Source: a virus. From it: a DNA stretch of 43,766 nt. The notes under the pieces were generated by a model, which saw only the letters and a program-made list of their open reading frames with translations, had not been told where the DNA came from and searched no databases. Positions 9,154 through 43,766 of the stretch are shown piece after piece. Position 1 is the first letter of the stretch. The number at the start of each line of letters is the position of its first letter. The stretch is from positions 1 to 43,766 of the IMG/VR virus record IMGVR_UViG_3300044898_000015. The stretch is one strand, 5' to 3'. Made by a program: the position numbers and the translations under genes.

Positions 9154-9621
9154 TTAGGGGGTCGTGGGGACGGTCACGGTGATGATCTGTGGGCCGGTGT
9201 GGCGGGTCAGCAGGTAGCTGACGACGACGGTTACGAGCGGGATCACGACCAGAACGAGTCCGAGCGCGCCGAGCATCCTCGACTGGAATCCCTCGAGCTT
9301 CTGGATCGACTCGTTGACGTGGTGGACGTCGCTCTGTGTGGCGTAGGTCGCGTCCCTGTCCCTTGACTGGCGGATCAGGTCGTTATGCGATTTCAGCGTC
9401 TCCTTCGCGGCCTCCTCGGCCTTCTGGACGGCTTCCTTCGCCGCTGTCAGGGCAGCGTTCACCGCTTTTTCACGTTCGGTGAGGGCGAACTGGACGGCGG
9501 TCTCCTGCGCTTGGAAGCGTTCGTCGAGGCGTTTGTCGCGTTCGTCGTCGCGTTTGTCGCGCTCTTTGAGGATCAGCTCGAAGTAGGCGCGCTGCTCGTG
9601 CCGCTCCTCCACCTCGTTCAT
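9154..9621 (-). CDS. Coiled-coil protein with C-terminal TM anchor (lysis cassette)
   Basis: A long charged helical region is followed by LGALGLVLVVIPLVTVVVSYLL. Confidence 0.55.
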   Translation of the reverse strand: MNEVEERHEQRAYFELILKERDKRDDERDKRLDERFQAQETAVQFALTEREKAVNAALTAAKEAVQKAEEAAKETLKSHNDLIRQSRDRDATYATQSDVHHVNESIQKLEGFQSRMLGALGLVLVVIPLVTVVVSYLLTRHTGPQIITVTVPTTP

Positions 9622-27610: not shown

Positions 27611-28132
27611 TTAGCCGTTGTTGACGATCCGCGGGACGAACGCGGACGCGGCGGGCGTGTAGGTGATGTAGACCGCGTACTCGTTCGCGGTCGCCGACCC
27701 GGATCCGAACGGGTCAGGTGCCGCCCCCGTCGTGTACGTGATGCCTCGCGTATAGACCCCGGGGCCCGACAGGTTGTAGTAGACGAGCATCGAGTTCGAA
27801 CTGACCCAGAACGTGATCCAGTATTTAGCCGCGTTGGTGAGCGAACCCGTGACGGTGAAGTCGACCCAGGCACCGTTTGGTGAGCCGGTGCCGTCAGCGA
27901 CGGACACTTCCGACGACATCGAAACAAGCGCACCCGGAACGCCCGCGTTGTCGGCGTAGATGCCGCAACGATGGCCGATCGCCGACCCTGACGTGTTCTT
28001 GATGAACGCCGAGACCTTGGTCACGGTCCCCGCTTCTGTCATCGTGTACGGCCCGGAAGCAATCAGGTTGTTGGCGATCCCGTTGAGAACGTTGCCCGCG
28101 CCTGGGGTAGAGGTAGTGCCGAGGGTCGCCAT
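27611..28132 (-). CDS. Hypothetical beta-rich protein, 173 aa
   Basis: Clean ORF. Its Gly/Ser/Thr/Asn-rich composition is suggestive of a jelly-roll or lectin fold. Confidence 0.5.
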   Translation of the reverse strand: MATLGTTSTPGAGNVLNGIANNLIASGPYTMTEAGTVTKVSAFIKNTSGSAIGHRCGIYADNAGVPGALVSMSSEVSVADGTGSPNGAWVDFTVTGSLTNAAKYWITFWVSSNSMLVYYNLSGPGVYTRGITYTTGAAPDPFGSGSATANEYAVYITYTPAASAFVPRIVNNG

Positions 28133-28165
28133 CTAGCCGCTCACCCTTTCTCGTCGTATGCTTCG

Positions 28166-28885
28166 TTGGTGATTCAATCTGTGAAGGCCCCGCTGCGGCC
28201 CCTCTACAGGCGGCTCGTTGCTCGCAAAGCGGTCAACACCGTGAAACGTCGGCGGCCCGCCTCGATCGTCGACGAAGTAGACTTCGCGCTCAGCTTCCAG
28301 ATCCGGGGCGTCCCGATCATGCCGTTCCAGATCCGCGCCGAGATCGCGCACCTTTTGAAGCTCGTCGCTGCGGAGCAGCCTCGGACGGTGCTCGAGATCG
28401 GGACGATGCGCGGCGGAACCCTTCTGCTATTCACTCGTGTCGCGGCCGACGACGCTCTGCTTGTCACCGTCGACCTTTCGGACGAGACGCGCCGGGAGTT
28501 CGGCGGCGACAACCACGCCGCGAACGCACCCCTGTACCGAGCATTCGCGCGCGGCACGCAGCGCGTCGAATTCATCGCAGGCGACTCCCACGAACCCGAC
28601 ACAACCAAGCGCATCACCGACACGCTCGAAGGACGACCCGTCGACTTCCTGTTCATCGACGGCGACCACACCTACGACGGCGTCCGCTCCGACTACGAGA
28701 TGTATTCGCCGCTCGTCCGGCCCGGCGGCCTGATCGCGTTCCACGACATCGTTGACGGGCCGGAGGACGCTGTCGGTGGTGTCCCCAAGTTCTGGCGTGA
28801 GATCAAGACCGAGTCAACCTGCGAACTAGTCCAAGACTGGGGACAGGGCGGCTACGGGATCGGCGTACTACGAGCCGCGAGCTAG
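28166..28885 (+). CDS. Class I SAM-dependent methyltransferase (Methyltransf_24/CmcI-like, O-methyltransferase type)
   Basis: SAM motif VLEIGTMRGGT and FIDGDHTYDGVRSDYEMYSPLVRPGGLIAFHDI. It is on the plus strand inside the minus-strand late operon. Its TAG shares a CTAG with the TAG of the convergent gene. Confidence 0.75.
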   Translation: MVIQSVKAPLRPLYRRLVARKAVNTVKRRRPASIVDEVDFALSFQIRGVPIMPFQIRAEIAHLLKLVAAEQPRTVLEIGTMRGGTLLLFTRVAADDALLVTVDLSDETRREFGGDNHAANAPLYRAFARGTQRVEFIAGDSHEPDTTKRITDTLEGRPVDFLFIDGDHTYDGVRSDYEMYSPLVRPGGLIAFHDIVDGPEDAVGGVPKFWREIKTESTCELVQDWGQGGYGIGVLRAAS

Positions 28886-30570
28886 CCAGCCTTGTCTGCC
28901 CCGATGTCGGGGACCGATGTCCGCGTGACACCGTGGATGTCAGTAGCCGGGAAGGTCACGGGGTCGCCGTGGGCTTTCGCGCACGTATCCGAAGCGGAGA
29001 GGTCGTAGTTCCCGGTTGTATCACGCGACGCGTCCGTAAACGTCGGATTGCAAACCTGCGCACCAGTCGAGCCACTACAGCCGGTGTCGGAGGTTGATCC
29101 AAACGAGTTATAGGTATAGGTCAGGTTCCGGTTGACGTTCCCGCAGGTGTAGCTTCCGGCCCGGTAGATGACCCCTCGCGAGATACCGGGTGTTCCGCCG
29201 CACGACACATTGATCGCGCTCACGGTGTCGTAGTCGAAGACGAAGTCGTTGGTGCTTCCGCACGACGCTCCCGCAGTACCTACCGGGAAGATCGTAATGT
29301 CGTTTCCGCCCGCCTCAAGGTTTAGCCCCGTCATGGTGTTTTCGATCTGGATGTGGTCGAGTGGTGCGCCGCCGACGTTCGAGGCGAGGATGTTGCTGGT
29401 CGCGTTCCGGTAGAAGTGCGAGTTCTTGATGACGATGTTCGTGCCACCCGCGAGCTGCATCCCGTCCGTGTGCGGAACGGCACCGTTCGTGCAAGTCGTC
29501 CCCGAAGCAGCTCCAACGCTTGGGTCACGCCAACGATCGACGTCGTGGACGGTCAGATTGTCGAACGTCACATGGTCAGCCGCCCGCGAGGTCCCGTTCC
29601 CGAGGTCGAGCCGGTTCACCTGGACCCCGTCCTCCCACGTCCCCGGCGGGAACCCACCCACCGCGAGGCACGCGTGGAGGCCGCTCACCGTCACGTTCTG
29701 GATCAGGATGTTGTCGCCCTTGATGTCGAGCTTCTCAAGCCCGGTCGAGTTCTTCAACGTCACATTCGTGATCCACGGCGCATTAATGCTCGGCGTCTCG
29801 AGGTCAGCGCCGCCCCCGTCGTTCGCGTTCGCGCTAGACGCCGGGAAGTTGATTCCATCGAAGGTCACGTAGCTCGTATTGACGGTGAGCCCGGCGACCG
29901 TCAAAGATGCGCCCCCGTCCGGCTTGAACGAGACGACGCTCGTCCCCTTATTCACGTACGGGATCGTCTGGACGCCGTAGGTGCCCGACTCGACGAGGAC
30001 GAGGTCGCCGCCCGACGCCGCCACATACGCAGCGTTCAAGTCCGAGCAAGCAGCGGCATCGACGTAGGCGACCGGGGTAGCGCTCCGGGTGCAGGTGCCG
30101 CCGTTCGAGTCGACAAAGATGTTGCCAACCGGCGGGCCGCCGCCCTGTCCTGAGGTGACCGTTACAGACTCAGACGCCACGTTATGGTTGCCCGCCGCGT
30201 CGCGGCAATCAGCCGAAAGGGTGTAAGTGCCGTTCCCTGACGAGCTCGAATCCCAAGTGATCGCGTAAGGGAACACGGTGTCGTCGAGCAGGTTCGCACC
30301 GTTCAGCTTAAACTGCACCCCTGCGACACCGATGTTGTCGGTACACGTAGCGGCCACGTTGACGGAAGACCCGGAAACCGTCGCACCCGAGGACGGGTCG
30401 GTGATCGCAACGATTGGAGGAGTGCTGTCTCTTCCACCGGGAGATCCCACCGGGACCCCCTGCCCCCAACCATAGTAGCCACCCACAGTCGCGCCAGCAG
30501 CGGCGATAACAGCGGCCGTTACTTTCAGCTTCCGACCCCGAGTCCACGGGTTGAACGCGGATGGGCTCAC
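28882..30570 (-). CDS. Exported or anchored protein with an Ig-like domain and a right-handed parallel beta-helix (polysaccharide lyase/depolymerase-like)
   Basis: N-terminal signal/anchor RGRKLKVTAAVIAAAGATVGGYYGWG and an Ig-like segment VNVAATCTDNIGVAGVQFKLNG...YTLSADCRDAAGN. It also has repeated beta-helix rungs such as NVTLKNSTGL, ILIQNVTVSGLH and IVIKNSHFYRN. Confidence 0.6.
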   Translation of the reverse strand: MSPSAFNPWTRGRKLKVTAAVIAAAGATVGGYYGWGQGVPVGSPGGRDSTPPIVAITDPSSGATVSGSSVNVAATCTDNIGVAGVQFKLNGANLLDDTVFPYAITWDSSSSGNGTYTLSADCRDAAGNHNVASESVTVTSGQGGGPPVGNIFVDSNGGTCTRSATPVAYVDAAACSDLNAAYVAASGGDLVLVESGTYGVQTIPYVNKGTSVVSFKPDGGASLTVAGLTVNTSYVTFDGINFPASSANANDGGGADLETPSINAPWITNVTLKNSTGLEKLDIKGDNILIQNVTVSGLHACLAVGGFPPGTWEDGVQVNRLDLGNGTSRAADHVTFDNLTVHDVDRWRDPSVGAASGTTCTNGAVPHTDGMQLAGGTNIVIKNSHFYRNATSNILASNVGGAPLDHIQIENTMTGLNLEAGGNDITIFPVGTAGASCGSTNDFVFDYDTVSAINVSCGGTPGISRGVIYRAGSYTCGNVNRNLTYTYNSFGSTSDTGCSGSTGAQVCNPTFTDASRDTTGNYDLSASDTCAKAHGDPVTFPATDIHGVTRTSVPDIGADKAG

Positions 30571-31430
30571 GGAGACGTCCAGGTCGTACGCACCTCGGAC
30601 CCCTTCGTCCCGGTCCCAGCGACATCACAGTCGAAGTGGAGCTTGTCTCCCGCCGCAACCGTCTGCGAACCGTCACTCTTGATGACAGCCGGAGTCGCAG
30701 CAGTACGAGACGACGTCTCGTTCGCGTCGATGGTGATGTTCGTCGTCAGCATCTCCGTCGAGTTCTTACGAAGACCGAGTGACGGCAGCCCCGACGACGA
30801 AACGGTCTTAACCGTCCAAACGGCGCCGGTGAGTGACCATCCGTCGAGGTCGGCCCCGACCTCGTACGTGTAGGAGGCGAAGTCCTCGGCGACCGCGAGC
30901 GCAGTACCGTCAGCGATCAGCACGAACTCTTTCGTGATCGTCGCCGCAGCCGGAATGACGAGTCCTCGCATGTTTAGCAGGTAGCCCGAAACGCTTGAGT
31001 CCGCGTGCAGCAACGGATGCGAAACCTGACCCGCCGTCGTCGGCTCAGTCGCCGTCAACGCGCCCGCCGTAACCGGGTCGAGGAAGTAGTCGCTCCCCGG
31101 CGTCAACCCCGTCAGACCGGTGAAGTAACCGCCGATCTGGATCGTGAACGCGTTCATGCCGCCGACAGCGGAAACGAGCCCGTCAACGTCCGAGTCGGCC
31201 GCGACATCCGCCTTCGCGGTGACGTACTTCGCCTGGCCGTTGTCGAAGCGTACGGCCTGGCCGACTGTGAACCCGTGCGCGGTCTGCGTGACCGCGTGCG
31301 TGATCGCGGTACCAGACGTCGCGCTCGCGTTCGAGATCGTCTGCAGCTCCGCGACCGCGTCAGCAAGCCGGTTCAGAAACTGGGTGCTCCAGTCAGACCT
31401 GTCAGTCGGAGACTCAACCGCGGTCGCCAT
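30567..31430 (-). CDS. Tail-fibre / receptor-binding-like protein, 287 aa
   Basis: AHGFTVGQAVRFDNGQ.YVTAKAD...VDGLVSAV...GSDYFLD resembles a fibre-domain pattern seen in prophage tail-fibre proteins. Confidence 0.4.
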   Translation of the reverse strand: MATAVESPTDRSDWSTQFLNRLADAVAELQTISNASATSGTAITHAVTQTAHGFTVGQAVRFDNGQAKYVTAKADVAADSDVDGLVSAVGGMNAFTIQIGGYFTGLTGLTPGSDYFLDPVTAGALTATEPTTAGQVSHPLLHADSSVSGYLLNMRGLVIPAAATITKEFVLIADGTALAVAEDFASYTYEVGADLDGWSLTGAVWTVKTVSSSGLPSLGLRKNSTEMLTTNITIDANETSSRTAATPAVIKSDGSQTVAAGDKLHFDCDVAGTGTKGSEVRTTWTSP

Positions 31431-32980
31431 CAGACCGGCCCCTGCTGCGCGTACGCCGGGTTACGAATCACCCGGCGCGAAATACGACGATTCCACATCG
31501 GCGCGTCCTTCTGTAGACGGTTCAAAGACCCGAACTTCGGCATCGACTCCTGCAAGGCCCGATAGGCGAACCACATAGCCATGACCGTGTCCGTAGTCCG
31601 GCCGGGATACTGAACAAGCTCGTCAACGAGCACAGCCATCTTCCGCTGCGAGTGCGCGTCCGCCCACGGGATATGCACCGCGCCACGCTCAAACCACGGC
31701 GACATCGACTGCACCCCCAGCTCCGGGTCAGGCTTGTTCACGCGCGTGGTGTAGTGCGGCTCGATCCGAAGCGCCTTGTCCTGCGCCTTCAGCTTCGACT
31801 CAACCTCCTGGGCGAGCCCCGCCTGGAACGAGTTAGCCTCGATCTTCGAGATCAGAAGCTGGTACTCCTCATGCTTCGAGATGATCGTGTCCACCTGCTG
31901 CGGCAACGTCCACTGGTCCCGCTCAAGATCGACCACCCAGAAGCAGCGGTCATGCAGAACACAAGAGCCGGCCGCAAGCACCAGGTGCGCGCAGAACTTC
32001 GCTGACCGCGTCAACCCCACAGCCGGGTCGAAACCGCCTACACGCTTCCAGTGCGTCTCGTAGCCGCCCACGGAGTAGCTGCGATCCAGGCAGCCGGGAA
32101 ACTCGACCGGCCCGATCGTCCCGCCCTTCACGTACTCCTCCTTGAACACCATCCGCGACGCGTCAACGGCGATGTTCCGGTACCGCTTGTTGAAGTTCAA
32201 AGTTCCCTGCTTCGCCTTCTGCTGCATCAGACGCTTCCACGGCCACCGCTCCGGCCACAACGTCTTGTGCTCCTCCTCGTCAACGATCGCGTCCTCGAGC
32301 TGCAGCTTCCAGAGGTTGCCGCCCTCGAACTGCATCCGCTCCAAATCCGCGTACAAGTCAGCAGGGTCGAACCGTGTGCCAACAACGATCAGTTGCGAGT
32401 CCTGATGCTCCGGCCCCGTCTCGACGCACAAGTCGAACCAGTCGCGCAGCTTCCGCCTCTGCTCCGGTGTCGCGCTGTTCTTGTCGGTGACGACGTCGTC
32501 GCAGATCGTCAGATCGGTGCGGTAACCGAGAACCGTTTTCGCGCCGGAACCGAACACCGTGATCGTCGGCTCCTTCGCCCTCCGCGTCCGCTTCTGCACC
32601 GACATACGACCCAACGCCCACGGCTTATCGTCCTGCGAGTCCGGCTTGAACGGGCCGAAATCACGGATCAGCTCCGTGTTGTCGGTCAACTCCGACTGGA
32701 TCACCGCCATGATCCCTTCGGTCTCCGTGTCGTTCTTACCGATGATCACGATCCGGACGTTCGGGTCCTTGCAGATCCGCCAGATCGGAAGCAGCGTCGA
32801 CACAATCGTCGTCTTGCCGTGCGTCGCGGGATAGAGGATGAGCGCGCGCACGTCCGTGCTCGCGGTGTGGATCAGTCGAAGGTGGAACTCTTCAAGCTTC
32901 GTGATCCGGTGCGGAAAGTAGCGCACTATGAACAATGCGGGGTTGTCGAGTAGTAGCTGGCGTTGCGCCTCGTCGATCAC
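31430..32980 (-). CDS. terL: Terminase large subunit
   Basis: Walker A-like YPATHGKTT, Walker B LTICDDV, coupling motif VVGTRFDPADLY, and a C-terminal nuclease-like half with GGFDPAVG. Confidence 0.85.
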   Translation of the reverse strand: MIDEAQRQLLLDNPALFIVRYFPHRITKLEEFHLRLIHTASTDVRALILYPATHGKTTIVSTLLPIWRICKDPNVRIVIIGKNDTETEGIMAVIQSELTDNTELIRDFGPFKPDSQDDKPWALGRMSVQKRTRRAKEPTITVFGSGAKTVLGYRTDLTICDDVVTDKNSATPEQRRKLRDWFDLCVETGPEHQDSQLIVVGTRFDPADLYADLERMQFEGGNLWKLQLEDAIVDEEEHKTLWPERWPWKRLMQQKAKQGTLNFNKRYRNIAVDASRMVFKEEYVKGGTIGPVEFPGCLDRSYSVGGYETHWKRVGGFDPAVGLTRSAKFCAHLVLAAGSCVLHDRCFWVVDLERDQWTLPQQVDTIISKHEEYQLLISKIEANSFQAGLAQEVESKLKAQDKALRIEPHYTTRVNKPDPELGVQSMSPWFERGAVHIPWADAHSQRKMAVLVDELVQYPGRTTDTVMAMWFAYRALQESMPKFGSLNRLQKDAPMWNRRISRRVIRNPAYAQQGPV

Positions 32981-33180
32981 TTAGCAGGCTTCTTGGTTCC
33001 GACCCTCACGATCGCCGGAGGAGCCTCGCCGAGCCACCGCTCGTTCTGCATCTTCAATGCTTCCTCCATCTGCGGCATGACGTTCGGCGGCCCATCACGT
33101 TTCACGACGGGCGACGGGTTGTCGTGCGCTTGGACGTGCGGGGGTGTCGGGTTTTTACGCCCGTATTTCGGAATCGCCAT
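32977..33180 (-). CDS. Hypothetical basic protein, 67 aa
   Basis: GGAGG RBS upstream. GTGA junction with terL. Confidence 0.5.
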   Translation of the reverse strand: MAIPKYGRKNPTPPHVQAHDNPSPVVKRDGPPNVMPQMEEALKMQNERWLGEAPPAIVRVGTKKPAK

Positions 33181-33189: not shown

Positions 33190-33354
33190 CTAGCTGTGCT
33201 GGACCGCGTGAGCGGCGTGCGCGTTCAAGTTCGACTCCCACCGCGAGTTGACAAGCGCGATGTTCACGCCACGCTTCAAGGTGCCGCAGTCAGGACACGC
33301 CGCAAGCTTCTTGTCGAAGAACAGCGAGCACACCTGACAGCGAAGAAACGTCAC
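33190..33354 (-). CDS. Possible 54-aa zinc-ribbon protein (below the ORF-track cutoff)
   Basis: Hand translation gives VTFLRCQVCSLFFDKKLAACPDCGTLKRGVNIALVNSRWESNLNAHAAHAVQHS (CxxC...CxxC). Confidence 0.4.
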   Translation of the reverse strand: MTFLRCQVCSLFFDKKLAACPDCGTLKRGVNIALVNSRWESNLNAHAAHAVQHS

Positions 33355-33865: not shown

Positions 33866-34034
33866 CGTCCTTGATCCGCGCCGACACGTCTTTCGCCGTG
33901 CGTGCTTGTTCGGTGTAGAAGCTGCCGGTGAGTTCTTCGAGTAGCGTCGGGTCGCGCGGGATGACGGGTAGTTCGACTTTCGGCATGATGCGGCGGAGCA
34001 CGTCCAGCGGGATCTTCTCGTCTCTAGGCGGCAT
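33849..34034 (-). CDS. Hypothetical protein, 61 aa
   Basis: The ORF begins MPPRDEKIPLDVLRRIMPKVELPVIPRD... Confidence 0.4.
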   Translation of the reverse strand: MPPRDEKIPLDVLRRIMPKVELPVIPRDPTLLEELTGSFYTEQARTAKDVSARIKDDGKRR

Positions 34035-34314
34035 CGGCCCTCCGCGCGCCTGCAATGGCGATGCCCTTCTTGTCGTCGCGCGAGCATCCGAGAATGAAGT
34101 CGTAATTGTCCTCGATTCTGGCTAGCGCGATGAAGCTGGGGCGGACCGTTTTACTGCTATCCGTCAGCCAGTCTGTTTCGACGAACTCGCGCGTCCGACG
34201 TATTTCGTCGAACTCTTCCTCCGAGATAAGACGAATCTCGCCGCTACTAGCAATCGGCGTCTTGAAGTAACCACCCTGCTCGGTGGTGTAGATGAGCATG
34301 TGCGTACCGTTCAT
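34024..34314 (-). CDS. Hypothetical 96-aa protein in a visibly lower-GC segment
   Basis: Clean ORF. A hand count of four 60-nt lines gives about 50-60% GC, below the surrounding sequence. Confidence 0.55.
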   Translation of the reverse strand: MNGTHMLIYTTEQGGYFKTPIASSGEIRLISEEEFDEIRRTREFVETDWLTDSSKTVRPSFIALARIEDNYDFILGCSRDDKKGIAIAGARRADAA

Positions 34315-34961
34315 GCCGCGCTCCTAACTCGCTGTGTTGCATCCGCTTGCCGCTCCTGATTCACAACAGAATCCGTCGAGTCGTGAGCCGTGTAGATGTA
34401 CAAGACGTCGCGCGTCCTGGCAGGCTCCGAATGCTTCAGAAACCGCGTGTACAGGTCGAAGTCGGCAGCACCATCGAAGCTGGAATCGAAGCCCCCAAGA
34501 GCATCGGTGAGAGACTTACGCCAGTAGACGGCGCCGCCAAGCATGTACTGGCCGTGCCTGGTCGCCTCAACGTCAGCCCAAGTACCGCCGCGCAACGCGA
34601 CCGGCATCCCGGACGGATCAACGAGGACAGTCCTGCCGCACAACCAGTCCGCGTCACCGATCGTACGGTCTACGGTTTGAAGCGCCCGTCTAGAAAGGCG
34701 GTCGTCGTCTGAGAGCGGGTGTACGAACTCGCCGTTCGCCAGATCGAGCGCAGCTTGAAAGTCGGCTGCCGGGCCGTGCGACTCGCCGCGGACATACCGG
34801 ACACGCGGATCAACCGGGACCAGATCCTCGACCGGCTCCTCGCCGCAGTCGTAGACGATCTGCTCCCAATCAGTGAACGACTGGTCGAGCACCGAACGGA
34901 TGCAACGACCGATCCACTCCGGCCTGTCCCGCGTCGGCGTCAGCAACGAGAATCTTGGCAA
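34311..34961 (-). CDS. Family-2 (GT-A) glycosyltransferase
   Basis: FSLLTPTRDRPEWIGRCIRSVLDQSFTDWEQIVYD and the DxD region HPLSDDDRL. TTG start with GAGGAG upstream. Confidence 0.75.
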   Translation of the reverse strand: MPRFSLLTPTRDRPEWIGRCIRSVLDQSFTDWEQIVYDCGEEPVEDLVPVDPRVRYVRGESHGPAADFQAALDLANGEFVHPLSDDDRLSRRALQTVDRTIGDADWLCGRTVLVDPSGMPVALRGGTWADVEATRHGQYMLGGAVYWRKSLTDALGGFDSSFDGAADFDLYTRFLKHSEPARTRDVLYIYTAHDSTDSVVNQERQADATQRVRSAA

Positions 34962-35811
34962 GTTCTTCTCCTCGTCCGGAAGCGTCGAAGTTTTCGAGGT
35001 GGCGCGTCAACGCCTGCCCATTCATCCCCGGCTTCCAATGCGCGTTCGCGTAATCGTCACGCAGCTTCTGCACCGCCCGCGCAACCTGCCGGCCGGTTAC
35101 CGGCTGCCGCGGAACCACACCACCCAACCGGCCAAGAATGTCGAGAAGCTCCCGCGACCCCAGCCACTGATAACCGACCTCAATGTCACGGCCGACATAG
35201 TCGTCGCCGTCACGCGACCAGTCGTCGATCGCGTCCATCGGCCGCTTACCCGTCCGATAATTCAAATGCTCGACCGTCACATGGCCCATGTACCGGTGCA
35301 GGTTGTGCGGCTCAACGATCCGGCACCACGCGACATCGATGAACGCCTGACGGACACCCGGAAGCGCCCACCAGCCGACAGTCCTGACGAGCTCGCCGCC
35401 CCAGCAAAGCCCGGACGACAGATTCGTCCCGTCCTCGAGCTCTGCGAGCAGACTCGGCGATTCGCTCAACCACATGTCTCGCGCGTACGAGAGACACCAG
35501 TCGGCCGCCGCGTCCTCCAGCAGTTTGTCCCATCCCGTTGTCCGCGGCCTCACGTCGTCGGCGAGCCACCCGTACTGGGCCGCGTCCGGATAGTTGTCGT
35601 AGCACCACGACATCGACGCCTGCAACGATCCCCACACGGGTTCGTAATGGATGCTCCAGTTCGCGGGTAGCCGGATGTCCTGGTACTCGTCGACCGTTTC
35701 GTCAACGTAGACGACGCCGGGCGACGTCATCCCGGTTGCTTCGCACGCGTCCAGCGTCTCCTGGCACTCCTTCGGCCGTCCCCGCGTCGATAGAAGCCAG
35801 ATCGCGTCCAC
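34870..35811 (-). CDS. Divergent glycosyltransferase-like protein, 313 aa
   Basis: The N-terminus AIWLLSTRGRPKECQETLDACEATGMTSPGVVYVDE resembles a GT-A beta1-alpha1-beta2 unit. LADDVRP is a possible DxD. Its 3' end runs 92 nt into the next gene. Confidence 0.4.
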   Translation of the reverse strand: MDAIWLLSTRGRPKECQETLDACEATGMTSPGVVYVDETVDEYQDIRLPANWSIHYEPVWGSLQASMSWCYDNYPDAAQYGWLADDVRPRTTGWDKLLEDAAADWCLSYARDMWLSESPSLLAELEDGTNLSSGLCWGGELVRTVGWWALPGVRQAFIDVAWCRIVEPHNLHRYMGHVTVEHLNYRTGKRPMDAIDDWSRDGDDYVGRDIEVGYQWLGSRELLDILGRLGGVVPRQPVTGRQVARAVQKLRDDYANAHWKPGMNGQALTRHLENFDASGRGEELAKILVADADAGQAGVDRSLHPFGARPVVH

Positions 35812-35923
35812 CAGACTTGTACTTCCTTTCGCATTTGTGGCGGATGATCGCGAGGTTCACGTCGATCGGGGTGGCGCCGTCGCACTCGAAATCGCAGAAC
35901 AGACACGACCCCGAGTAGGTCAT
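35702..35923 (-). CDS. Small Cys-rich ORF (CxxC...C...H..C)
   Basis: ATGA junction with the upstream GT2 gene. The first ~37 codons have high third-position GC. The remainder runs 110 nt into the next gene with poor codon bias. Confidence 0.4.
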   Translation of the reverse strand: MTYSGSCLFCDFECDGATPIDVNLAIIRHKCERKYKSGGRDLASIDAGTAEGVPGDAGRVRSNRDDVARRRLR

Positions 35924-36495
35924 GCTGCTGCAAGGTGGCGGTTACGCGAACCAGGCTGCACCCGGTACGACCAGAGCACTTCAGGCACAAGCTTGAACAC
36001 CGCGGCCGCTCCCAAACACAGCTTCCAGAGCTCCCAGTCCTCGCCCGGCTGTAGTCGCTCCGGCGGCTCCGGCCAGCCACCCAACTCCTCCACCAACGAC
36101 TTACGCACGCACGCTGTCACCGGGATGAAGTTCCCCCTGAGCAGCAACGCGTCGTTGAACAACCGGTTCGGCGTCCAATCCGGCAGCCCCTCAACCCGGC
36201 ACCACGAATACACCACATCAACATCGGCCGTCAGGTACGGCGCGATCGTTTCGACGTAGTCGGGGTCGAGCGTGTCGTCGTCATCGACGGGAAGGACCCA
36301 GTCGCCCTTGGCACGTCCGACCATCCGGTTCCGAAGAACACTCGGGCCGGACCCGTTGACGTCCGTCTCGACAAGGTGCTCACAGACTGGGACGGTTTGT
36401 GCCGCCACCGACGCCTTGCACTCATCAAGCAGCCCCGACCGCGACACGACTGTCGGCGTGATCACCGAGATGCTCGTACGCGTCGCTCCACTCAT
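35920..36495 (-). CDS. Family-2 (GT-A) glycosyltransferase
   Basis: ISVITPTVVSRSGLLDECKASVAAQT...EHLV and WVLPVDDDDTLDPD. AAGGAG lies 9 nt upstream of ATG 36495. It overlaps the upstream gene by 71 nt. Confidence 0.75.
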   Translation of the reverse strand: MSGATRTSISVITPTVVSRSGLLDECKASVAAQTVPVCEHLVETDVNGSGPSVLRNRMVGRAKGDWVLPVDDDDTLDPDYVETIAPYLTADVDVVYSWCRVEGLPDWTPNRLFNDALLLRGNFIPVTACVRKSLVEELGGWPEPPERLQPGEDWELWKLCLGAAAVFKLVPEVLWSYRVQPGSRNRHLAAA

Positions 36496-37543
36496 CCGCC
36501 CCAACTCCTTGAATGACATGCTCCGCAGCTTTCGCTCGCGCGTTCTCGCCCATCTCCCGCCACGACACCAACATGTCGTCCAACGCGTTACGCCACTCCC
36601 GCGGCTTATCGCACCTAGCAAGCAGCCCATTCACGCCAGGCTCAACCCACCACCGGTACGACTCCGACGGCCCCGCAACACACGGGATCCCACACGCCGC
36701 ATACTCAAGCCCCTTCAAATGCGACTTCGCCTCCGTAAACCTAGACTGCTCCAACGGCACCAGGCCGATGTCCATCACCGCCGTGATGTCAGCCAGATCG
36801 AGCTCGTGGAAATGCGTCGGCATCACCGACACCCGCTGACCGGGAGGGACACCGATCATGTCGTGCACCAACGGGTCGCCGGCAGCAACGAACTCCACCT
36901 CCGGATGCTGTACGAGCCACGGGCCGATCACGCCGCGCAACACCGCAAGATCGCCGCGACGCCACCGCGAATCACCCATCCAGCCGACACGCACCCTCCG
37001 CGTCTCGCGTTCGTACGCCAACGGCGCGTCAACCCACATCCCCCAATCCAGACGATTCCGGATCACCTGAACGTTCTCCTGGTACGGCGCGTACAGGTCC
37101 GCGAGTTCCGGTGTCGCGACCGTCAACCCGTCCGCCGCTCCAAGCATCGCAAGCATGTTCGCCCGCATCTCCGGCGACTTCCGCGCACCCGGATTCGACA
37201 AAGGCAACCTAAGCCAGTCATCGTCGGAATCGACCAGCACACGCTTCCCCTGCTCACGCAACCGGCCGATCACATCCGCCCAGCCCGGCTCCTCACGCTG
37301 ATTCAAAACCAGCAGATCAAACTCCTCATCGAGGAGCCACTGGTCGATCCCCTTCACCAACCGCACACCATCCGGCGCACGCTGGAACACCCCGTAATGC
37401 ACCTTCAGCCCGCCCTGCAACGGCTCCACTAGCCGCGGCACCTGCGCGACGGTGTGACCACGAAGGGCCATCTCACTCGCTGGAAACAAGACCCTGTAAA
37501 AACCCGAGCCGTCGAAGTTCGAGGGGAGAGCAACGATCCTCAC
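36425..37543 (-). CDS. GT-B fold glycosyltransferase (GT1/GT4-like)
   Basis: MRIVALPSNFDGSGFYRV and the C-terminal TEAKSHLKGLEYAACGIPCVAG...EPGVNGLLA (E-x7-E-like region). Confidence 0.7.
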   Translation of the reverse strand: MRIVALPSNFDGSGFYRVLFPASEMALRGHTVAQVPRLVEPLQGGLKVHYGVFQRAPDGVRLVKGIDQWLLDEEFDLLVLNQREEPGWADVIGRLREQGKRVLVDSDDDWLRLPLSNPGARKSPEMRANMLAMLGAADGLTVATPELADLYAPYQENVQVIRNRLDWGMWVDAPLAYERETRRVRVGWMGDSRWRRGDLAVLRGVIGPWLVQHPEVEFVAAGDPLVHDMIGVPPGQRVSVMPTHFHELDLADITAVMDIGLVPLEQSRFTEAKSHLKGLEYAACGIPCVAGPSESYRWWVEPGVNGLLARCDKPREWRNALDDMLVSWREMGENARAKAAEHVIQGVGADEWSDAYEHLGDHADSRVAVGAA

Positions 37544-37944
37544 GCGTTAGCCCAGTCGATCAGCGGCATGTGCGGGGCGATCGTCTTCGAGAGCGCGTCC
37601 ACGCTGTATTCCATCGCCCGCCGATAGCCGTCACAGAAGACGTAGTAGACGGGCTTCCCGAGTGCGTCCCCGAGATCGGTCTGAACCATCTTCCAGCAAA
37701 CGTCGAGATGCGCATGGACAAGCTCGTGCACGACCGTCTCACGCTGATCCTCAGGATCTCGGTCGCGGAAACGGTCGTTAAACGCGATCCCGACGTGCCG
37801 CTGACCGACGGTGCAATGCGCGTATGCCTCCAAGTGGCTCTCGCAAGATTCATCGCCGATCGTGACCGTCCAGTCCCGAAGCTCCATCGCGTCCGCGACC
37901 CAGCGCACGTACTTGGCAAGCGCCTTCCGTTCTCGCTTCGTCAC
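37540..37944 (-). CDS. HExxH-motif protein, putative zinc metallopeptidase-like, 134 aa
   Basis: Contains VVHELVHAHLD. Confidence 0.45.
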   Translation of the reverse strand: MTKRERKALAKYVRWVADAMELRDWTVTIGDESCESHLEAYAHCTVGQRHVGIAFNDRFRDRDPEDQRETVVHELVHAHLDVCWKMVQTDLGDALGKPVYYVFCDGYRRAMEYSVDALSKTIAPHMPLIDWANA

Positions 37945-39074: not shown

Positions 39075-40412
39075 TCATTCGGTGTCTTCGGTGTCGTTGA
39101 TGAGCTCGAGGTATGCGAGGTGGTCGTGTGGCTCGTCCGGTGGCTCGTCCGGCCTGTCCCCCCTTAAGGGGTGGGACGAGGCACGGAGCCACGGTGCATT
39201 TGTAAGTGATATGTCGTGGGTCGTCCCGTACTCGGGCGCTGCCACGTCTTCTCTGGATTCGTGCTGGTTGATTGGTTTGGTGTTTGTGCGGTTTGTGGCT
39301 CGTCCTGGGTTGTCCGGGGTGTGGGCGCTGCCATCGTGGCTCGTCCCGTGGGTCGTCCGGGGGGTGTCTGGGAAGAGGGGTTGGGCGCTGCCACCGGAGG
39401 GGTTGTAGACGACGTCTTTGACGGGTCTGCCGAGCTTGTCGGTGCGGCCTGATGGGCCTCGGGTGAGGGCGCCTTCGGCGACGAGTAGGGCGAGTTCGCG
39501 GTCTGCGGCGGTGGCGCGTACTCCGAGTCCTTTGGCGATGTCGCGGGCTTTGCTGTCGCGGTGTTCGTCGACCCATTCGATGATGCGTTGCCGTAGCGGT
39601 GGCATGTCGGGCTCGTTGTTAGCGACGGTGAACCGCATGGAGCGTGTCTGGGTGTCCCAGGCGATCCGGTAGTCGAGCGGGGTGGCGGCTTCGGCTTCGC
39701 GGTGTTCGGATTCGATGGTGACGAGGGGTGATTGGCCGTCGCGGCGCCAGCGGAGCCGTGTCTCCCACACGGACTCGAGGTCGGAGCTGCCGCGCATGTG
39801 TTCGCCGGCGTGTCCGGTGTGGTGGACGAAGCTAACGGCGGCTTTCGTTTCGTCGCGTAGCTGGCGTATGAAGTCGATGAGGGGGGCCATCCCGGATTGT
39901 TCGTTCTCTTCGCGTCCTGGGTCTTTCATGCGGGCGAGCGGGTCGAAGACGTAGAGGCGCGGCTGGACGTGGACGCCGAGCTCGAGGAGTTCGAGCTGGG
40001 ATGCTTCGTCGTCGAGTTTGATGCGGGCGTTGGCGCCGAGGAGGAGCCGTCCGCGTAGCCGTTCGGGGTTGATGGCGCGGCCTCTACAGAGGGCGTCGAG
40101 GCGTCGCCAGAGCGCGGCCCGTCCGGACTCTTCGTTGACGAAGATGACGGGTCCGGGGTTCGGGATCTCGAGTACGCCGAACGCGGGCTCGCCTGTCGCG
40201 ATGCTGATACACAGGTCGAGGAGGCCGTAGGACTTGGTGGTTTTCCAGCGGCCGACGGCGGCGATGATGGCCTGGTCGACGATGAGGTCTTGGACGAGCC
40301 AGGCTGTCGGGCCTGGGTCGGGTTCGGCTAGCAGGTCGGCGGCGTCGACTAGCCAAGCAGGCTGGCTGGATGGGAGGTCGGCAGCGTGGAGCGGGTGCAG
40401 CTCGACTGTCAT
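39075..40412 (-). CDS. RecA-fold ATPase, RepA/DnaB-like replicative helicase candidate with a C-terminal winged-helix domain
   Basis: WLVQDLIVDQAIIAAVGRWKTTKSYGLLDL is an AAA_25-like layout, and the Walker A is atypical (GRWKTTKS). LYVFDPLARM is Walker B-like. The C-terminal ARDIAKGLGVRATAADRELALLVAEG is wHTH-like. ATG 40412 forms an ATGA junction. Confidence 0.55.
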   Translation of the reverse strand: MTVELHPLHAADLPSSQPAWLVDAADLLAEPDPGPTAWLVQDLIVDQAIIAAVGRWKTTKSYGLLDLCISIATGEPAFGVLEIPNPGPVIFVNEESGRAALWRRLDALCRGRAINPERLRGRLLLGANARIKLDDEASQLELLELGVHVQPRLYVFDPLARMKDPGREENEQSGMAPLIDFIRQLRDETKAAVSFVHHTGHAGEHMRGSSDLESVWETRLRWRRDGQSPLVTIESEHREAEAATPLDYRIAWDTQTRSMRFTVANNEPDMPPLRQRIIEWVDEHRDSKARDIAKGLGVRATAADRELALLVAEGALTRGPSGRTDKLGRPVKDVVYNPSGGSAQPLFPDTPRTTHGTSHDGSAHTPDNPGRATNRTNTKPINQHESREDVAAPEYGTTHDISLTNAPWLRASSHPLRGDRPDEPPDEPHDHLAYLELINDTEDTE

Positions 40413-40699
40413 GCGGCGACCGTGTCGCGTACCGTCTCCGCCCGCCGCAACCAGACGGCGAGCGACCACGCCGCCCTGTGGTCACGCCAATCGATCACGG
40501 CCCCGATCACGACCGCGAACGGGTAGCAGTATCCGAGGTCGCCGCCGCAACACGCGGGCTTGCGGGCTTTGTGTTTGTCGGCTGCTTCGACGAGTTCGAG
40601 GAGGAGCAGGTGGAACTCTGCGTTGTCGGCCGGGGTCCACCACGGCTGCTCGTCGAGGTTGTGTCTAGTCGGCGTCTCGGTTGCGGTGGCTGCGGTCAA
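40409..40699 (-). CDS. Hypothetical protein, 96 aa
   Basis: Clean ORF. Confidence 0.5.
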   Translation of the reverse strand: MTAATATETPTRHNLDEQPWWTPADNAEFHLLLLELVEAADKHKARKPACCGGDLGYCYPFAVVIGAVIDWRDHRAAWSLAVWLRRAETVRDTVAA

Positions 40700-40777: not shown

Positions 40778-41659
40778 CTACTTGGCCGCTGGCACCTTCC
40801 CAACCTCGATCAGCCTGTCGAGCAGCCCGAGCGCCGACGTGCGGAGGCCGAGGTCGCCGAACGCTTCGCGGTATCGCTCGTCGTAGTACGGACGAAACAC
40901 CCAGTACGCACCGTCACGGCGGTTCCAGTAAATCGACCCGGCTTGTTTCGCTGCTTCGAGCGCCTTCGCGTAAACGTCCTTGAAGGCATCCGCATCCGCA
41001 ACCGCCGCAGCCGCCGCAGCCGCAGCCGCATCCGCAACCGCATCCGCAACCGCAGCCGCCGCATCCGCATCCGCAGCCGCCGCATCCGCAGCCGCATCCG
41101 CATCCGCATCCGCATCCGCAACCGCCGCAGCCGCCGCATCCGCAGCCGCATCCGCAACCGCAACCGCAACCGCAACCGCAACCGCAACCGCGCCATACTT
41201 CTTCCAAGCTGCCTGTCGCTTGGCCCACATCGCGTCACGGACGCTACGAATCGTCTTGCGCGCAGATGCCCACTCGGCCGGGCCGGTGATCGCAGCGAGC
41301 TGCTCGAACTGTTCCGCCTGCTCTGTAGCGCCTACCGCGCGGAACGCAGCCGGCGCGTATTCGTGGACGAGCCAGTCGGCGCACATCCAGCGTCGGACCT
41401 CGTCGTCTGCCGTGTTGGTGTTGGTGCCGACAACCTGTGGGATGTACGGCTTGAGGAGCTGCCGGGCGTCGTCTGGCCAGCGGTCGTTGAGCGACATCGT
41501 GAACCGGCGGATCACGGGAGATACGCATTTGGGGGTGTCGCTGAAGGGTTGGTGGTTGAAGTAGGCGACGGCTTCGTTGAAGCACATGCCTTCTTCGGGT
41601 GTTTTGTGGGAGCCGCTGTCGAGGTGGAGTGTGTCGAGGTCGAGTGATGCGGTGCTCAT
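40778..41659 (-). CDS. Hypothetical 293-aa protein with an internal Ala/Val/Asp low-complexity array
   Basis: Clean N- and C-terminal domains flank 69 codons of AV/AD/AA repeats. Confidence 0.6.
   Translation of the reverse strand: MSTASLDLDTLHLDSGSHKTPEEGMCFNEAVAYFNHQPFSDTPKCVSPVIRRFTMSLNDRWPDDARQLLKPYIPQVVGTNTNTADDEVRRWMCADWLVHEYAPAAFRAVGATEQAEQFEQLAAITGPAEWASARKTIRSVRDAMWAKRQAAWKKYGAVAVAVAVAVAVADAAADAAAAAVADADADADAAADAAAADADAAAAVADAVADAAAAAAAAAVADADAFKDVYAKALEAAKQAGSIYWNRRDGAYWVFRPYYDERYREAFGDLGLRTSALGLLDRLIEVGKVPAAK
40986..41192 (-). repeat. 207-nt cryptically simple triplet/hexamer array (GCAACC, GCATCC, GCAGCC, GCCGCC units)
   Basis: Read directly from the sequence. It includes (GCAACC)x6 at the 3' side of the plus strand and runs of GCATCC. 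It stays in frame within the CDS. Confidence 0.9.
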
Positions 41660-42048
41660 GCGGCTTGTGCCTCCTTCGCGGCCTCAATGGGCCGGTCGAG
41701 TTCGGTATAGGTCGATGCTTCGAGCGCGTGCCCCGACGGCTGCTGACGGCACGTCAACACATAGGCGAGGAACTCCAGATCGCGCGGCCTAGCGACATAG
41801 GCTTCGGCTCCGGCGTCGAGTAACGCCGTCAGCCACGACCGCTGGGCGTCGGACACCTTCCCGGTCTCCGTCTTCAACTCGAGGAAGATCACGCGGTCGC
41901 GTACTAGCGTCTCGTCGGGGAAACCCGGCTGGGACCGTTCGGACCGGAAGGTGTGGTAGCGGCGCCAGCCGAGCTGCAGGGCGAGCTGGGCGACTTGTTT
42001 CGACCAGTCTTTCTCGGTGTACATTGCGAGGGGGAGCGCGGCCTTCAC
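41656..42048 (-). CDS. VRR-NUC domain nuclease, about 130 aa
   Basis: GFPDETLVRDRVIFLELKTETGKVSDAQRSWL matches the D...ExK core of VRR-NUC. GTG 42048 is preferred, because the longer ORF has an Arg-rich N-terminus. Confidence 0.7.
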   Translation of the reverse strand: MKAALPLAMYTEKDWSKQVAQLALQLGWRRYHTFRSERSQPGFPDETLVRDRVIFLELKTETGKVSDAQRSWLTALLDAGAEAYVARPRDLEFLAYVLTCRQQPSGHALEASTYTELDRPIEAAKEAQAA

Positions 42049-42052
42049 GCGG

Positions 42053-42394
42053 CTACCTGAGTCCGCACGCGCCTGCGGTTCCCCATTCGCGAAACGACCC
42101 GCCGTCTTGCCGCACGATGATCCACATGCGGTAGATCTGTTCGCGCGGCGACACCGTGAACGGATACCGACGCTGGTCGCCGGGATGGTCGAACGCCATA
42201 TGGTGCGCGCCACCAGCCCGCTTCCACGTCGACTCGAGGAACTGCAAGCCGCCGAAGTACGTGTTGCCGGTGTTGTCGTTCCATGCGCCCTCGTGCTGAT
42301 GCACGCAGGTGGCTGCACGGAGGAACCATGGTGCGGCGTGCCAGTGTCGCGGCATGGGTGCGGCGCGGACTACCGTTGCCGCCCAGCCGATCAC
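42053..42394 (-). CDS. Rpf-like (transglycosylase-like, PF06737-type) domain protein; its 5' end is apparently frame-disrupted
   Basis: CVHQHEGAWNDNTGNTYFGGLQFLESTWKRAGG...SPREQI...REWGTAGACG follows the Rpf pattern CES.G.W..NTGNG.YGGLQF...W...GG...Q...W..C. Confidence 0.6.
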   Translation of the reverse strand: MIGWAATVVRAAPMPRHWHAAPWFLRAATCVHQHEGAWNDNTGNTYFGGLQFLESTWKRAGGAHHMAFDHPGDQRRYPFTVSPREQIYRMWIIVRQDGGSFREWGTAGACGLR

Positions 42395-43323: not shown

Positions 43324-43524
43324 TCACGACTCGCCCCGGTAGGTCGGGTCTCCTGGAAATGGGCCGTCCCCAGCGTCCTGGACGTACACCAAACTCCCGT
43401 CCTCAACGAGCGCCTGGATGAACTCAGCGCGCGCCTCGTCTTCCGTGCGGGCGTGGATGAAGTCGGACTCCACCCGGACGAAGAACCGCTTGGTGAGGCG
43501 CTCGGTTCTCGGCCCGCTAGACAC
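43324..43524 (-). CDS. Hypothetical 66-aa protein, probable paralog of 462..617
   Basis: MSSGPRTERLTKRFFVRVESDFIHARTEDEARAEFIQALVEDG... carries the 17-nt block at codons 4-9. The GTG start overlaps the upstream TAG. Confidence 0.5.
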   Translation of the reverse strand: MSSGPRTERLTKRFFVRVESDFIHARTEDEARAEFIQALVEDGSLVYVQDAGDGPFPGDPTYRGES

Positions 43525-43766
43525 GCGCTCTCCCGATAGGACGCAACGTGGCGTCCTCCTGAATCTCGAACTGCATGGGGAAGTTGCCGAGCTGCCAGAC
43601 AGCCCACACGCCGCCCTTCGGAACGTCCTCTTCGTCCTTCACACGAGAGAGGAGAGCGCCCACGCCGCTCGCTGCGCGGACAGTCTTCGGGTGCTTCCCA
43701 TCAGCCGTGCAGACGAGCCAGAGACTCATGTTCGTCGCTGCGTTGGCCTGCTCGGTTCTCGGCCCG
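43500..43766. repeat. Right copy of the exact 267-bp terminal duplication (= 1-267)
   Basis: Identical to 1-267. The window ends exactly at the last base of a 17-mer copy. Confidence 0.95.
43517..43729 (-). CDS. Second copy of gene 18..230/278 inside the terminal duplication (the upstream part runs off the window)
   Basis: The sequence is identical to 18..230. Confidence 0.55.
   Translation of the reverse strand: MSLWLVCTADGKHPKTVRAASGVGALLSRVKDEEDVPKGGVWAVWQLGNFPMQFEIQEDATLRPIGRARV

Follow-up and report, generated by a model that had tools for sequence, protein, structure and literature searches.

The DNA stretch IMGVR_UViG_3300044898_000015 (an IMG/VR virus record, positions 1 to 43,766; the whole 43,766 nucleotides are called the window below) carries a cassette of four glycosyltransferase (GT) genes upstream of the terminase gene terL. 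Compared at sequence level with its relatives, this cassette is one version of a clade-wide locus, in which a GT-B enzyme is constant and the tailoring enzymes are variable. By analogy with known systems, glycosylation of a virion protein is the best-supported reading of the cassette, and we hold it tentatively, as somewhat short of probable. The coordinates of the features are collected in Table 1.

The GT-B enzyme reaches 34.1 bits for PF13692, above the cutoff of 27 bits, and matches phrog_7162 (1e-25). Its AlphaFold2 (AF2) model (predicted local distance difference test, pLDDT, 93.7) has a GT-B fold of two Rossmann domains and is nearest to GT4 structures; the top Foldseek matches in the PDB are MshA, BA1558, BshA, PimA and PglA (E 4e-15 to 1e-12, template modelling (TM) score 0.6-0.7), and further matches include SdgB and TarM. 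With 216 homologs in metagenomes, it is a candidate for the initiating enzyme. For the two GT2 enzymes, GT2a and GT2b, PF00535 gives 45.0 bits (1.4e-11) and 36.6 bits (5.6e-9), respectively, against a cutoff of 23.3 bits. GT2b is also above the cutoff of PF13641 (9e-7) and matches phrog_14775 'glycosyltransferase' (4e-17), while the PDB sequence matches of GT2a are chondroitin synthase and the PglI-like AvpGT. Acidic DxD-type motifs are found in '...HPLSDDDRLS...' of GT2a and in '...VLPVDDDDTLDP...' of GT2b.

The fourth enzyme, called the GT-A protein here, has no Pfam or NCBIfam match in scans of both, and it matches phrog_14945 'glycosyltransferase' (4e-16). Its AF2 model (pLDDT 89.2) has 249 PDB matches at E<=1e-3, of which the top ones are all GT-A (WrtF, hyaluronan synthase, K4CP, ArnC and GalNAc-T2), and the viral structure matches include Pas34 (Actinoplanes phage phiAsp2). 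Residues D85-D86 (in 'GWLADD') and E181-H182 are invariant across 31 homologs, and these conserved DD and EH motifs also support the GT-A fold, which the model predicts with confidence. The 313-residue form is considered right and the 286-residue database call too short, because conservation extends over the N-terminal 27 residues, which make up the first strand-helix unit of the fold. Downstream, the GT-A gene overlaps GT2a by 92 nt (34870-34961) in a different frame, and each frame is conserved in relatives. The 171 metagenome homologs, the GWLADD and EH motifs and the confident structure model provide a family definition for this previously unmodelled GT-A enzyme.

All NCBIfam equivalog models are far below cutoff and hence point to no specific enzyme or donor sugar. 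A transmembrane segment is absent from all four enzymes, whose maximal 19-residue hydropathy is 0.65-1.48, compared with 2.8-3.3 for the holin candidates of the same phage. An earlier reading of the letters without database searches (the sequence-only reading) had placed four glycosyltransferases at about these positions on the minus strand, and Pfam, PHROG and AF2/Foldseek agree with it: in the hidden Markov model searches and structure predictions, three of them pass the Pfam cutoffs and the GT-A protein is recognised via phrog_14945 and AF2/Foldseek. Small genes and terL indeed follow the cassette. However, the two GT2 genes are not back to back as described, since the GT-A gene and a 73-codon open reading frame (ORF) intervene, and naming the strand "late" carries no information, since essentially every gene is on it.

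In order to find relatives (given as L numbers for loci and P numbers for proteins), alignment-based scans of IMG/VR were needed, as single-protein scans with GT-B, GT-A or the capsid protein returned nothing. The TerL alignment alone retrieved six loci, a selection not biased toward glycosyltransferases, and five of them were informative upstream. A glycan cassette lies directly upstream of small genes and terL in all of these five (L006, L017, L018, L019 and L020), and relatives found via the GT proteins have the same layout. TerL is 58-68% identical in relatives, each of which has a glycan cassette upstream of it. GT-B was found in every relative with enough upstream sequence (L004, L005, L017, L018, L019 and L022). 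The other genes vary. For example, L017 contains only GT-B and an O-methyltransferase, while L004 and L005 contain GT-B, GT2b, an SDR epimerase, an AsnB-like amidotransferase, GT-A and GT2a. L001 is like L004 and L005 with an additional class-I methyltransferase; its fetched stretch has no GT-B match, and a GT-B homolog (P0170) is present on the contig. L018 and L019 carry GT-B, GT2b, a GT17-like enzyme and an epimerase, with another GT2 in L018, and L022 carries GT-B, GT2b and an NDP-hexose C-methyltransferase-type enzyme. The shared enzymes keep their order: GT2b orthologs (45-51% identical) come after GT-B in L004, L005, L018 and L019, and one is also present in L001; GT2a orthologs (62-70% identical) come after GT-A in L001, L004, L005 and L006, with the match beginning at residue 1-5. 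The arrangement that the sequence-only reading did not recognise is therefore a clade-wide locus with variable content, and the GT-B/GT2/GT-A trio is also found in Arthrobacter phages. The synteny search that it had suggested among related actinophages did find the block again upstream of terL, but in metagenomic relatives, while cultured actinophages yielded only weak homologs.

The GT-A family also occurs beside packaging or structural genes in other backbones. In L010 and L016, which have a different terminase family, the GT-A gene lies just upstream of terL, with two tandem copies in L016. L015 has GT-A downstream of a Big_7 protein and a 513-residue protein, which is a possible TerL without Pfam or tblastn support. 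In L009, the GT-A homolog is located between an MptE/Maf-type gene and the gene of an SU10-type adaptor (head-tail adaptor). There (8470-9444), the MptE-like PF01973 gene is one ORF upstream of the GT-A homolog and the adaptor gene one ORF downstream. PF01973, which we take to be the domain family of the Maf flagellin glycosyltransferases, would hint at protein glycosylation. A lone GT-A homolog, 60% identical, was found at 10001-10732 of L003 (ENA ERZ25039477 contig_104793, cellular-looking, 77 kb), surrounded by fragmented cellular metabolic genes, with neither a second GT nor a phage gene close by; possible explanations are a rare cellular copy, a remnant or a misassembly.

A fifth enzyme is encoded outside the cassette, by the sole convincing plus-strand gene of the window. 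This methyltransferase matches PF13578 (4e-19), PF04989 (RMNT_CmcI, 3e-11) and PF01596 (3e-6), and its codon-position GC has the pattern typical of a real gene. Two GT-B homologs, P0177 and P0192 (44-49% identical to GT-B), bear a C-terminal Methyltransf_24 domain which is 41-42% identical to the methyltransferase of the window, and in L017 a 26% identical methyltransferase homolog comes directly after GT-B. Since its family is fused or adjacent to GT-B in relatives, the methyltransferase belongs to the system. In the GT-A family, P0022 is fused with a class-I methyltransferase and P0091 with GT2a, and the fusions in P0177, P0192, P0022 and P0091 tie five enzymes into one pathway. In particular, they join a GT4 enzyme to a CmcI-type O-methyltransferase. 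The O-methyltransferase-type gene pointed out in the sequence-only reading is thus real and linked to the glycosyltransferases (by the P0177/P0192 fusions and the L017 adjacency), with its plus-strand orientation to be added as a correction.

The methyltransferase lies in a gap of 3.8 kb between TerL and portal (27611-31430), while TerL adjoins portal in most relatives. Besides the methyltransferase, this gap holds three Ser/Thr-rich proteins of 287, 562 and 173 aa, of which the 562-aa protein contains a Big_7 Ig domain and 10 N-x-S/T sequons. As L018 has a beta-helix protein at its TerL-portal junction, the insert seems to be a second site at which fibre- or decoration-type genes accumulate. 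The stop of the methyltransferase gene overlaps that of the Big_7 gene (convergent), and its start is 33 nt from that of 27611-28132 (divergent). Because the gene is opposite to the surrounding operon, minus-strand transcripts must cross it in antisense.

The cassette itself is embedded in the lytic genes. Overlaps of a start with a stop codon (GTGA or ATGA) are found at 37540-37543 (HExxH gene and GT-B, which has a GTG start in GTGA), 35920-35923 (GT2b and the 73-codon ORF), 34311-34314 (GT2a and 34024-34314) and 32977-32980 (32977-33180 and TerL). With such four-nucleotide overlaps on both sides, the cassette is part of a translationally coupled lytic chain into terL and not a self-contained moron, and because its genes are co-transcribed and coupled with these lytic genes, the enzymes are expected to be made during particle assembly. 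The GC content of the cassette is 0.605-0.643, compared with about 0.63 for the genome. In a promoter and terminator scan, which is ill-suited to high-GC hosts, the sites were at chance level. Generally, the marks of a moron (own promoter and terminator, deviant composition, location near att or int) are not found in the cassette.

This embedding bears on the possibility that the acceptor is a host envelope glycopolymer (teichoic acid, arabinogalactan, capsule or a lipid-linked precursor), which soluble GTs would modify at the inner membrane face, leading to receptor masking, superinfection exclusion or less progeny loss on cell debris. The phage is temperate, as it has integrase, excisionase-like and repressor-like genes, and prophage TarP or TarM/TarS are known to glycosylate wall teichoic acid. 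The GT4/GT2 relatives PimA, PglA, TarM, WcaA, TuaG and PglI have no membrane helices and use acceptors that are linked to a lipid or a polymer, and the Joint Genome Institute (JGI) labels the homologs 'glycosyltransferase involved in cell wall biosynthesis'. Hypervariable content is also typical for surface-glycan loci, and the beta-helix, depolymerase-like protein of L018 hints at glycan receptors. However, Pfam scans of the genome detected no priming phosphoglycosyltransferase, flippase, GT-C enzyme or ligase, and the GTs have no membrane helix. The cassette has genome-like GC, is coupled to lytic genes on both sides and lies several kb from int/xis; as it is no autonomous moron, its expression from a repressed prophage is not expected. 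It is also clade-wide (5 of 5 TerL-selected relatives) rather than sporadic cargo, and to build and export a multi-sugar chain late in the lytic cycle would be less economical. The known Gtr (GtrA/B/C) and TarP modules resemble the window in that they belong to temperate phages, use GT2-family enzymes and show surface-glycan-type diversity. They differ in that the Pfam scans of the window found no GtrA flippase, membrane-anchored GtrB or GT-C family, and the window has four enzymes rather than one and no independently expressed moron near att; TarP-like decoration needs a single prophage-expressed enzyme. The envelope alternative raised in the sequence-only reading is weakened in its Gtr-type form (no membrane helices in the GTs, no flippase, no autonomous moron structure), and an envelope acceptor as a whole appears decidedly unlikely.

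If instead a virion protein is the acceptor, as we prefer, GT-B, the two GT2 enzymes and the GT-A protein would act in sequence with the O-methyltransferase encoded 7.5 kb away, and the product would be a short, partly methylated oligosaccharide, assembled in the cytoplasm from host nucleotide sugars. Its carrier would be comparable to the O-glycosylated capsid and tail-tube subunits of Che8, Corndog and Myrna. The constant GT-B would put the first sugar on a constant site, for which the C-terminal Ser/Thr of the capsid protein is the candidate, and the variable downstream enzymes would then extend and tailor the chain to a lineage-specific surface glycan. We infer the order of action, the acceptor and the benefit, which may be shielding, stability or host interaction. 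Three kinds of acceptor are known in phages, namely DNA, the host envelope and virion proteins. Virion glycosylation is ranked first because it needs only soluble transferases and because Corndog uses a methyltransferase and three GTs. Among the three functions listed in the sequence-only reading it is the best fit, as an argument by analogy with no detectable homology to Corndog.

According to papers that cite Freeman et al. (2023, Cell Host Microbe 31:1216), virion glycosylation in mycobacteriophages involves the gp107-110 region of Che8 and gp35-38 of Corndog, and is also found in Myrna. Che8 gp110 and Corndog gp38 are the glycosyltransferases reported to be essential in it. Like the window, Corndog has soluble GT genes and an O-methyltransferase gene in tandem by packaging and structural genes, and the architecture is only analogous: in Corndog the methyltransferase and three GT genes lie between portal and capsid, whereas the cassette of the window is upstream of terL and its methyltransferase is detached and on the opposite strand. 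In the related F1 phage Maravista, unlike the window, the GT locus is near the 3' end of the genome. The mycobacteriophage systems share with the window that they are multi-enzyme and variable between phage clusters. They are found in siphoviruses or myoviruses, while the window is SU10-type, podovirus-like and has no tail tube.

The candidate acceptor site was read from the capsid protein, whose C-terminus is ...VSNKS. A terminal Thr or Ser is present in 115 of the 120 best capsid homologs (84 Thr and 31 Ser; 49-92% identity), and the usual end in homologs is N-[K/Q]-[T/S], a motif that at the extreme C-terminus is also an N-x-S/T sequon. A terminal Ser is found in 9 of the 61 window proteins. 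In mycobacteriophages, the glycans are located at the C-termini of capsid and tail-tube subunits, according to a citing paper (PMC12619734). The ends that we read from sequence are ...NKTGS (capsid) and ...YSDGS (tail tube) in Che8, and ...PLVGS (capsid) and ...IKGDS in Corndog, the last from gp49, which is unnamed in its record and was taken as the tail-tube protein. The proteins reported as C-terminally glycosylated in Che8 and Corndog thus end in Ser, as does the capsid protein of the window. The gene pattern would agree with a constant GT-B that modifies an equally constant C-terminal hydroxyl, the chain then being extended in variable ways. As a hypothesis from sequence, the conserved C-terminal Ser/Thr of the capsid protein is the leading candidate for the glycosylation site, and the controls are ambiguous. 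The capsids of SU10 itself and of phBC6A51 have no terminal Ser/Thr.

A more specific proposal can be built on this site, namely a clade-wide 'glycotype locus', in which the GT4 enzyme would O-glycosylate the capsid C-terminal Thr/Ser and swappable enzymes would diversify the capsid glycan between lineages. Tailoring would consist of O- or C-methylation, epimerisation and amidation, and the locus would be a viral counterpart of O-antigen and capsule serotype diversification. This version is possible, if doubtful.

Several observations weigh against glycosylation of the virion. In the wider SU10-type capsid family, 38% of the proteins end in Ser/Thr, many with N-L-[T/S] near the end; because this wider family often has it, the terminal Ser/Thr could be structural and the lead unspecific. 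L010 and L016 carry the GT-A family, yet their capsids end in Asn or Ala. No similarity to the known enzymes was detected either: when Corndog gp35-39 were compared by BLASTP with all proteins of the window, no match was below E=0.3 (Che8 gp110 was not compared), and hhalign of the GT-A family profile against the essential Corndog gp38 gave a probability of 0.2%, so the Corndog parallel is an analogy only. GT4 and GT2 folds are uninformative on the acceptor. Furthermore, the distant homologs in Streptomyces cluster BE and Arthrobacter phages are located among nucleotide-metabolism and RNA-repair genes, not structural ones. The position upstream of terL has other explanations as well, since the boundary between replication and packaging modules also collects accessory cargo, and DNA-modification clusters can adjoin terminase genes too (Pyle et al., bioRxiv 10.1101/2023.12.21.572611).

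The last point leads to phage DNA as the acceptor, which would receive mono- to oligosaccharides on a hydroxylated base after replication and before packaging, as a protection against restriction; T-even phages do the like. The cassette, between replication genes (RepA-like helicase, VRR-NUC) and terL, fits a pre-packaging step, and the genome encodes an MT-A70 methylase and two C5-cytosine-methyltransferase-like proteins. Known DNA-glycosylation clusters, dependent on MT/5mYOX or ThyS (bioRxiv 10.1101/2023.12.21.572611; Lee et al., NAR 2026, PMC13326640), were likewise found in metagenomic phage contigs, with GT-A and GT-B in tandem, second GTs and sometimes epimerases; some are near a terminase and have DNA methyltransferases in the genome. 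'TET-associated glycosyltransferase' models stand at ranks 15 and 48, among the weaker viral structure matches, and distant Streptomyces BE homologs are near ThyX and ribonucleotide reductase genes. However, those clusters are defined by a precursor enzyme, and no thymidylate-synthase/dNMP-hydroxymethylase or TET/JBP match (Tet_JBP, Thymidylat_synt) was obtained in the scanned ORFs of this complete genome. DNA glycosylation would thus lack its precursor step, as there is no ThyS homolog or TET/JBP dioxygenase, and this alternative of the sequence-only reading loses ground, 5mYOX/TET being likewise absent from the complete genome. Within 10 kb of the cassette, no precursor enzyme was recorded in L001, L004, L005, L015, L016 and L022 either. 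When intact, pathways of DNA hypermodification usually form clusters (Pyle et al., bioRxiv 10.1101/2023.12.21.572611), whereas the methylases of the window are not adjacent to the GTs, the C5/DNA methylases being beside int, roughly 30 kb from the cassette in window coordinates. Sugar O- or C-methylation and amidation are usual in surface glycans and not in the DNA glycans known so far. DNA as the acceptor therefore appears highly improbable.

A further reading is another cytoplasmic target. This could be a small molecule, a non-structural protein of host or phage, or a free methylated oligo- or polysaccharide comparable with the polymethylated polysaccharides of mycobacteria, and the role could be metabolic takeover or counter-defence. 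The minimal cassette of GT-B and O-methyltransferase, sometimes fused (L017, P0177, P0192), resembles methylmannose polysaccharide synthesis, and the mannosyltransferase of this pathway (7qsg) is at rank 23 of the structural matches of GT-B. The top GT4 matches MshA and BshA use small-molecule acceptors, and the homologs in large Arthrobacter and Streptomyces phages adjoin nucleotidyltransferase and RNA-repair genes. Nevertheless, the structural similarity of GT-B is generic to GT4 (12-19% identity), no phage precedent is known, and such a target leaves unexplained why the genes are consistently placed by packaging or structural genes in several unrelated backbones. We regard it as unlikely.

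The homologs in cultured phages on which part of this comparison relies are weak, and the best of them, from Streptomyces, Arthrobacter and Actinoplanes phages, are 24-31% identical. As in the window, Arthrobacter phages Mimi, Racecar and Atuin have a group of glycosyltransferase genes (about genes 173-177). Mimi contains GT-B, a GT2b-like region and the GT-A family within 4 kb (25-27% identity), and GT2b is 26% identical to a part of Mimi gene 176. In Streptomyces cluster BE, the GT-A family adjoins another GT in Jay2Jay (gp38-39, 'Pas34-like'), again like the window. Unlike the window, the genomes of these Arthrobacter and BE phages are 130-194 kb, their GTs lie among nucleotide-metabolism, tRNA and RNA-repair genes, and the GT group is followed by a nucleotidyltransferase gene, while the cassette of the window leads to terL. 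A literature search on Streptomyces BE-phage glycosyltransferases returned nothing relevant.

Virion glycosylation by a virus-encoded methylated glycan has a further parallel in eukaryotic viruses. Chlorovirus PBCV-1 protein A064R consists of two rhamnosyltransferase domains and a methyltransferase domain and functions in capsid glycosylation, and from the PBCV-1 enzymes the major capsid protein receives a methylated oligosaccharide whose assembly does not depend on membrane pathways of the host. PBCV-1 is like the window in joining virus-encoded cytoplasmic GT-A-type transferases with a sugar O-methyltransferase, and the fusions in P0022, P0177 and P0192 mirror the domain logic of A064R. Unlike the window, it is a eukaryotic giant virus with atypical N-linked glycans and another capsid architecture.

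The phage carrying the cassette is temperate, has an SU10-type (podovirus-like) head and is without close cultured relative. Its window has a 267-nt direct repeat at both ends (1-267 and 43500-43766, 100% identical) and therefore represents a complete genome of 43,499 bp (contig 43,766), either a circular assembly or terminally redundant. The source at JGI is one metagenome contig, and a 12-kb copy is present in a Logan assembly. Megablast of the 5.1-kb block against 50,697 phage records gave no match. No relative turned up among 185,579 reference genomes, which were scanned once with the GT-A family and once with the TerL alignment, and the terminases of Streptomyces phages match TerL with no more than 28% identity. 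The sequence-only reading had referred to actinophages; the matches in Streptomyces, Arthrobacter and Actinoplanes phages indicate this weakly, and the reference genomes lend it no relative. tRNA and Rfam scans of the window found nothing, and hence no attP/tRNA clue to the host.

Table 1. Features of the window, listed from the highest to the lowest coordinate, which is the order of transcription on the minus strand
Feature	Position	Strand	Remarks
VRR-NUC	41656-42318	-	after small early genes in transcription order
Ala/Asp-repeat protein	40778-41659	-	transcribed after VRR-NUC
RepA-like AAA_25 helicase	39075-40469	-	followed by zinc-ribbon protein and HExxH protein
HExxH (HELVH) protein	37540-37944	-	SprT-like PF10263 E=0.0046, sub-threshold; upstream neighbour of the cassette
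Four glycosyltransferase genes	34311-37543	-	after HExxH gene; followed by five small genes and TerL
GT-B, GT4-type (retaining-type)	36425-37543	-	372 aa; PF13692 Glyco_trans_1_4, phrog_7162
GT2b, GT2 (GT-A fold)	35920-36495	-	191 aa, or 181 aa from next ATG; DDDD motif
Cys-rich ORF	35702-35923	-	73 codons; doubtful significance; in the slot of epimerase and AsnB-like genes in relatives
GT-A fold glycosyltransferase	34870-35811	-	313 aa; catalytic domain of about 230 aa and variable helical tail
GT2a, GT2 (GT-A fold)	34311-34961	-	216 aa, TTG start
96-aa protein	34024-34314	-	ATGA overlap with GT2a; travels with the cassette in some relatives
TerL	31430-32980	-	phrog_38 6.5e-69; fixed anchor downstream of the cassette
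O-methyltransferase, S-adenosylmethionine (SAM)-dependent (Methyltransf_24/CmcI/rhamnosyl-O-methyltransferase type)	28166-28885	+	239 aa
Portal	25521-27596	-	separated from TerL by 3.8-kb insert
M23 peptidase, 1547-aa protein, SLT-like protein		-	after portal; probably ejection proteins
SU10-type major capsid protein	14804-15943	-	PF17236 2e-38; adaptor gene next
NlpC/P60 lysin and holin candidates		-	after capsid and adaptor in transcription order
Repressor-like protein	7962-8381	-	after lysin and holin candidates in transcription order
MT-A70 methylase	4322-4984	-	after single-stranded DNA (ssDNA)-annealing-like gene in transcription order
C5-cytosine-methyltransferase-like proteins	614-1291 and 3323-4249	-	flank int/xis; each covers part of the Pfam model
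Excisionase-like protein	2480-2812	-	next to integrase; between the two C5-methyltransferase-like genes
Integrase	1335-2480	-	next to excisionase-like; between the two C5-methyltransferase-like genes

Among the neighbours of the cassette, the Cys-rich ORF and the HExxH protein had been counted as parts of the combination in the sequence-only reading. The ATG of the Cys-rich ORF overlaps the GT2b stop as ATGA and the ORF is called by the gene caller of Logan, and its last 37 codons (110 nt) overlap the conserved N-terminus of the GT-A gene. In relatives, its sole tblastn match is the out-of-frame GT-A overlap and small ORFs in the same place are unrelated, so it was rejected as a cassette member for want of conservation. 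The HExxH protein does precede the cassette, but its SprT-like match is sub-threshold and tblastn found no match in the relatives compared; it was rejected as a conserved member too. The 96-aa protein has no Pfam, PHROG or NCBIfam match, and 41-42% identical ORFs are located just upstream of GT-B in L018 and L019. A 54-aa CxxC...CxxC protein (33190-33354, minus strand) has 36-52% identical counterparts close upstream of terL in six relatives, and it may be a zinc-ribbon packaging accessory.

Elsewhere in the genome, the Ala/Asp-repeat protein is a 293-aa ORF without family match, located between the VRR-NUC and RepA-like genes, and its N-terminal part is 33% identical to a match in L017. Its middle consists of about 70 Ala, Asp and Val residues in a row, and the DNA that encodes them is made up of imperfect 6/12-nt GCNGCN repeats (40950-41215). 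The two C5-cytosine-methyltransferase-like genes share an 89-nt stretch with 78% identity (921-1009 and 3678-3766), and they may be diverged paralogs or a split enzyme. The 341-aa protein at 6110-7135 (minus strand), close to the DNA methylases, was considered as a hidden dioxygenase. This was rejected, as the protein matches phrog_10048 (unknown function, 4.5e-37), lacks any meaningful match in the PDB and, with a 'YGRIPGVSKPTLFKSGAEVL' segment and a CxxC...C zinc ribbon, resembles phage ssDNA-annealing/recombination proteins.

To our knowledge, a few mycobacteriophages (2023) are so far the only phages whose particles have been shown to be glycosylated. What is new here is that the enzymes and the virion type differ, and that the locus upstream of terL is fixed in place and hypervariable throughout a clade of uncultured phages. 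Even with DNA or the host envelope as acceptor, the locus would represent a new accessory pathway that a phage clade has conserved. If virion glycosylation is true, podovirus-like temperate phages of uncultured hosts would join the phages with glycosylated particles, and the trait would have an independent origin, with enzymes that have no detectable homology to the mycobacteriophage (Corndog) ones. A fixed locus with rapidly exchanged content would then imply diversifying selection on the phage surface, for which host receptors, defence systems, grazers and antibodies are possible selective agents.

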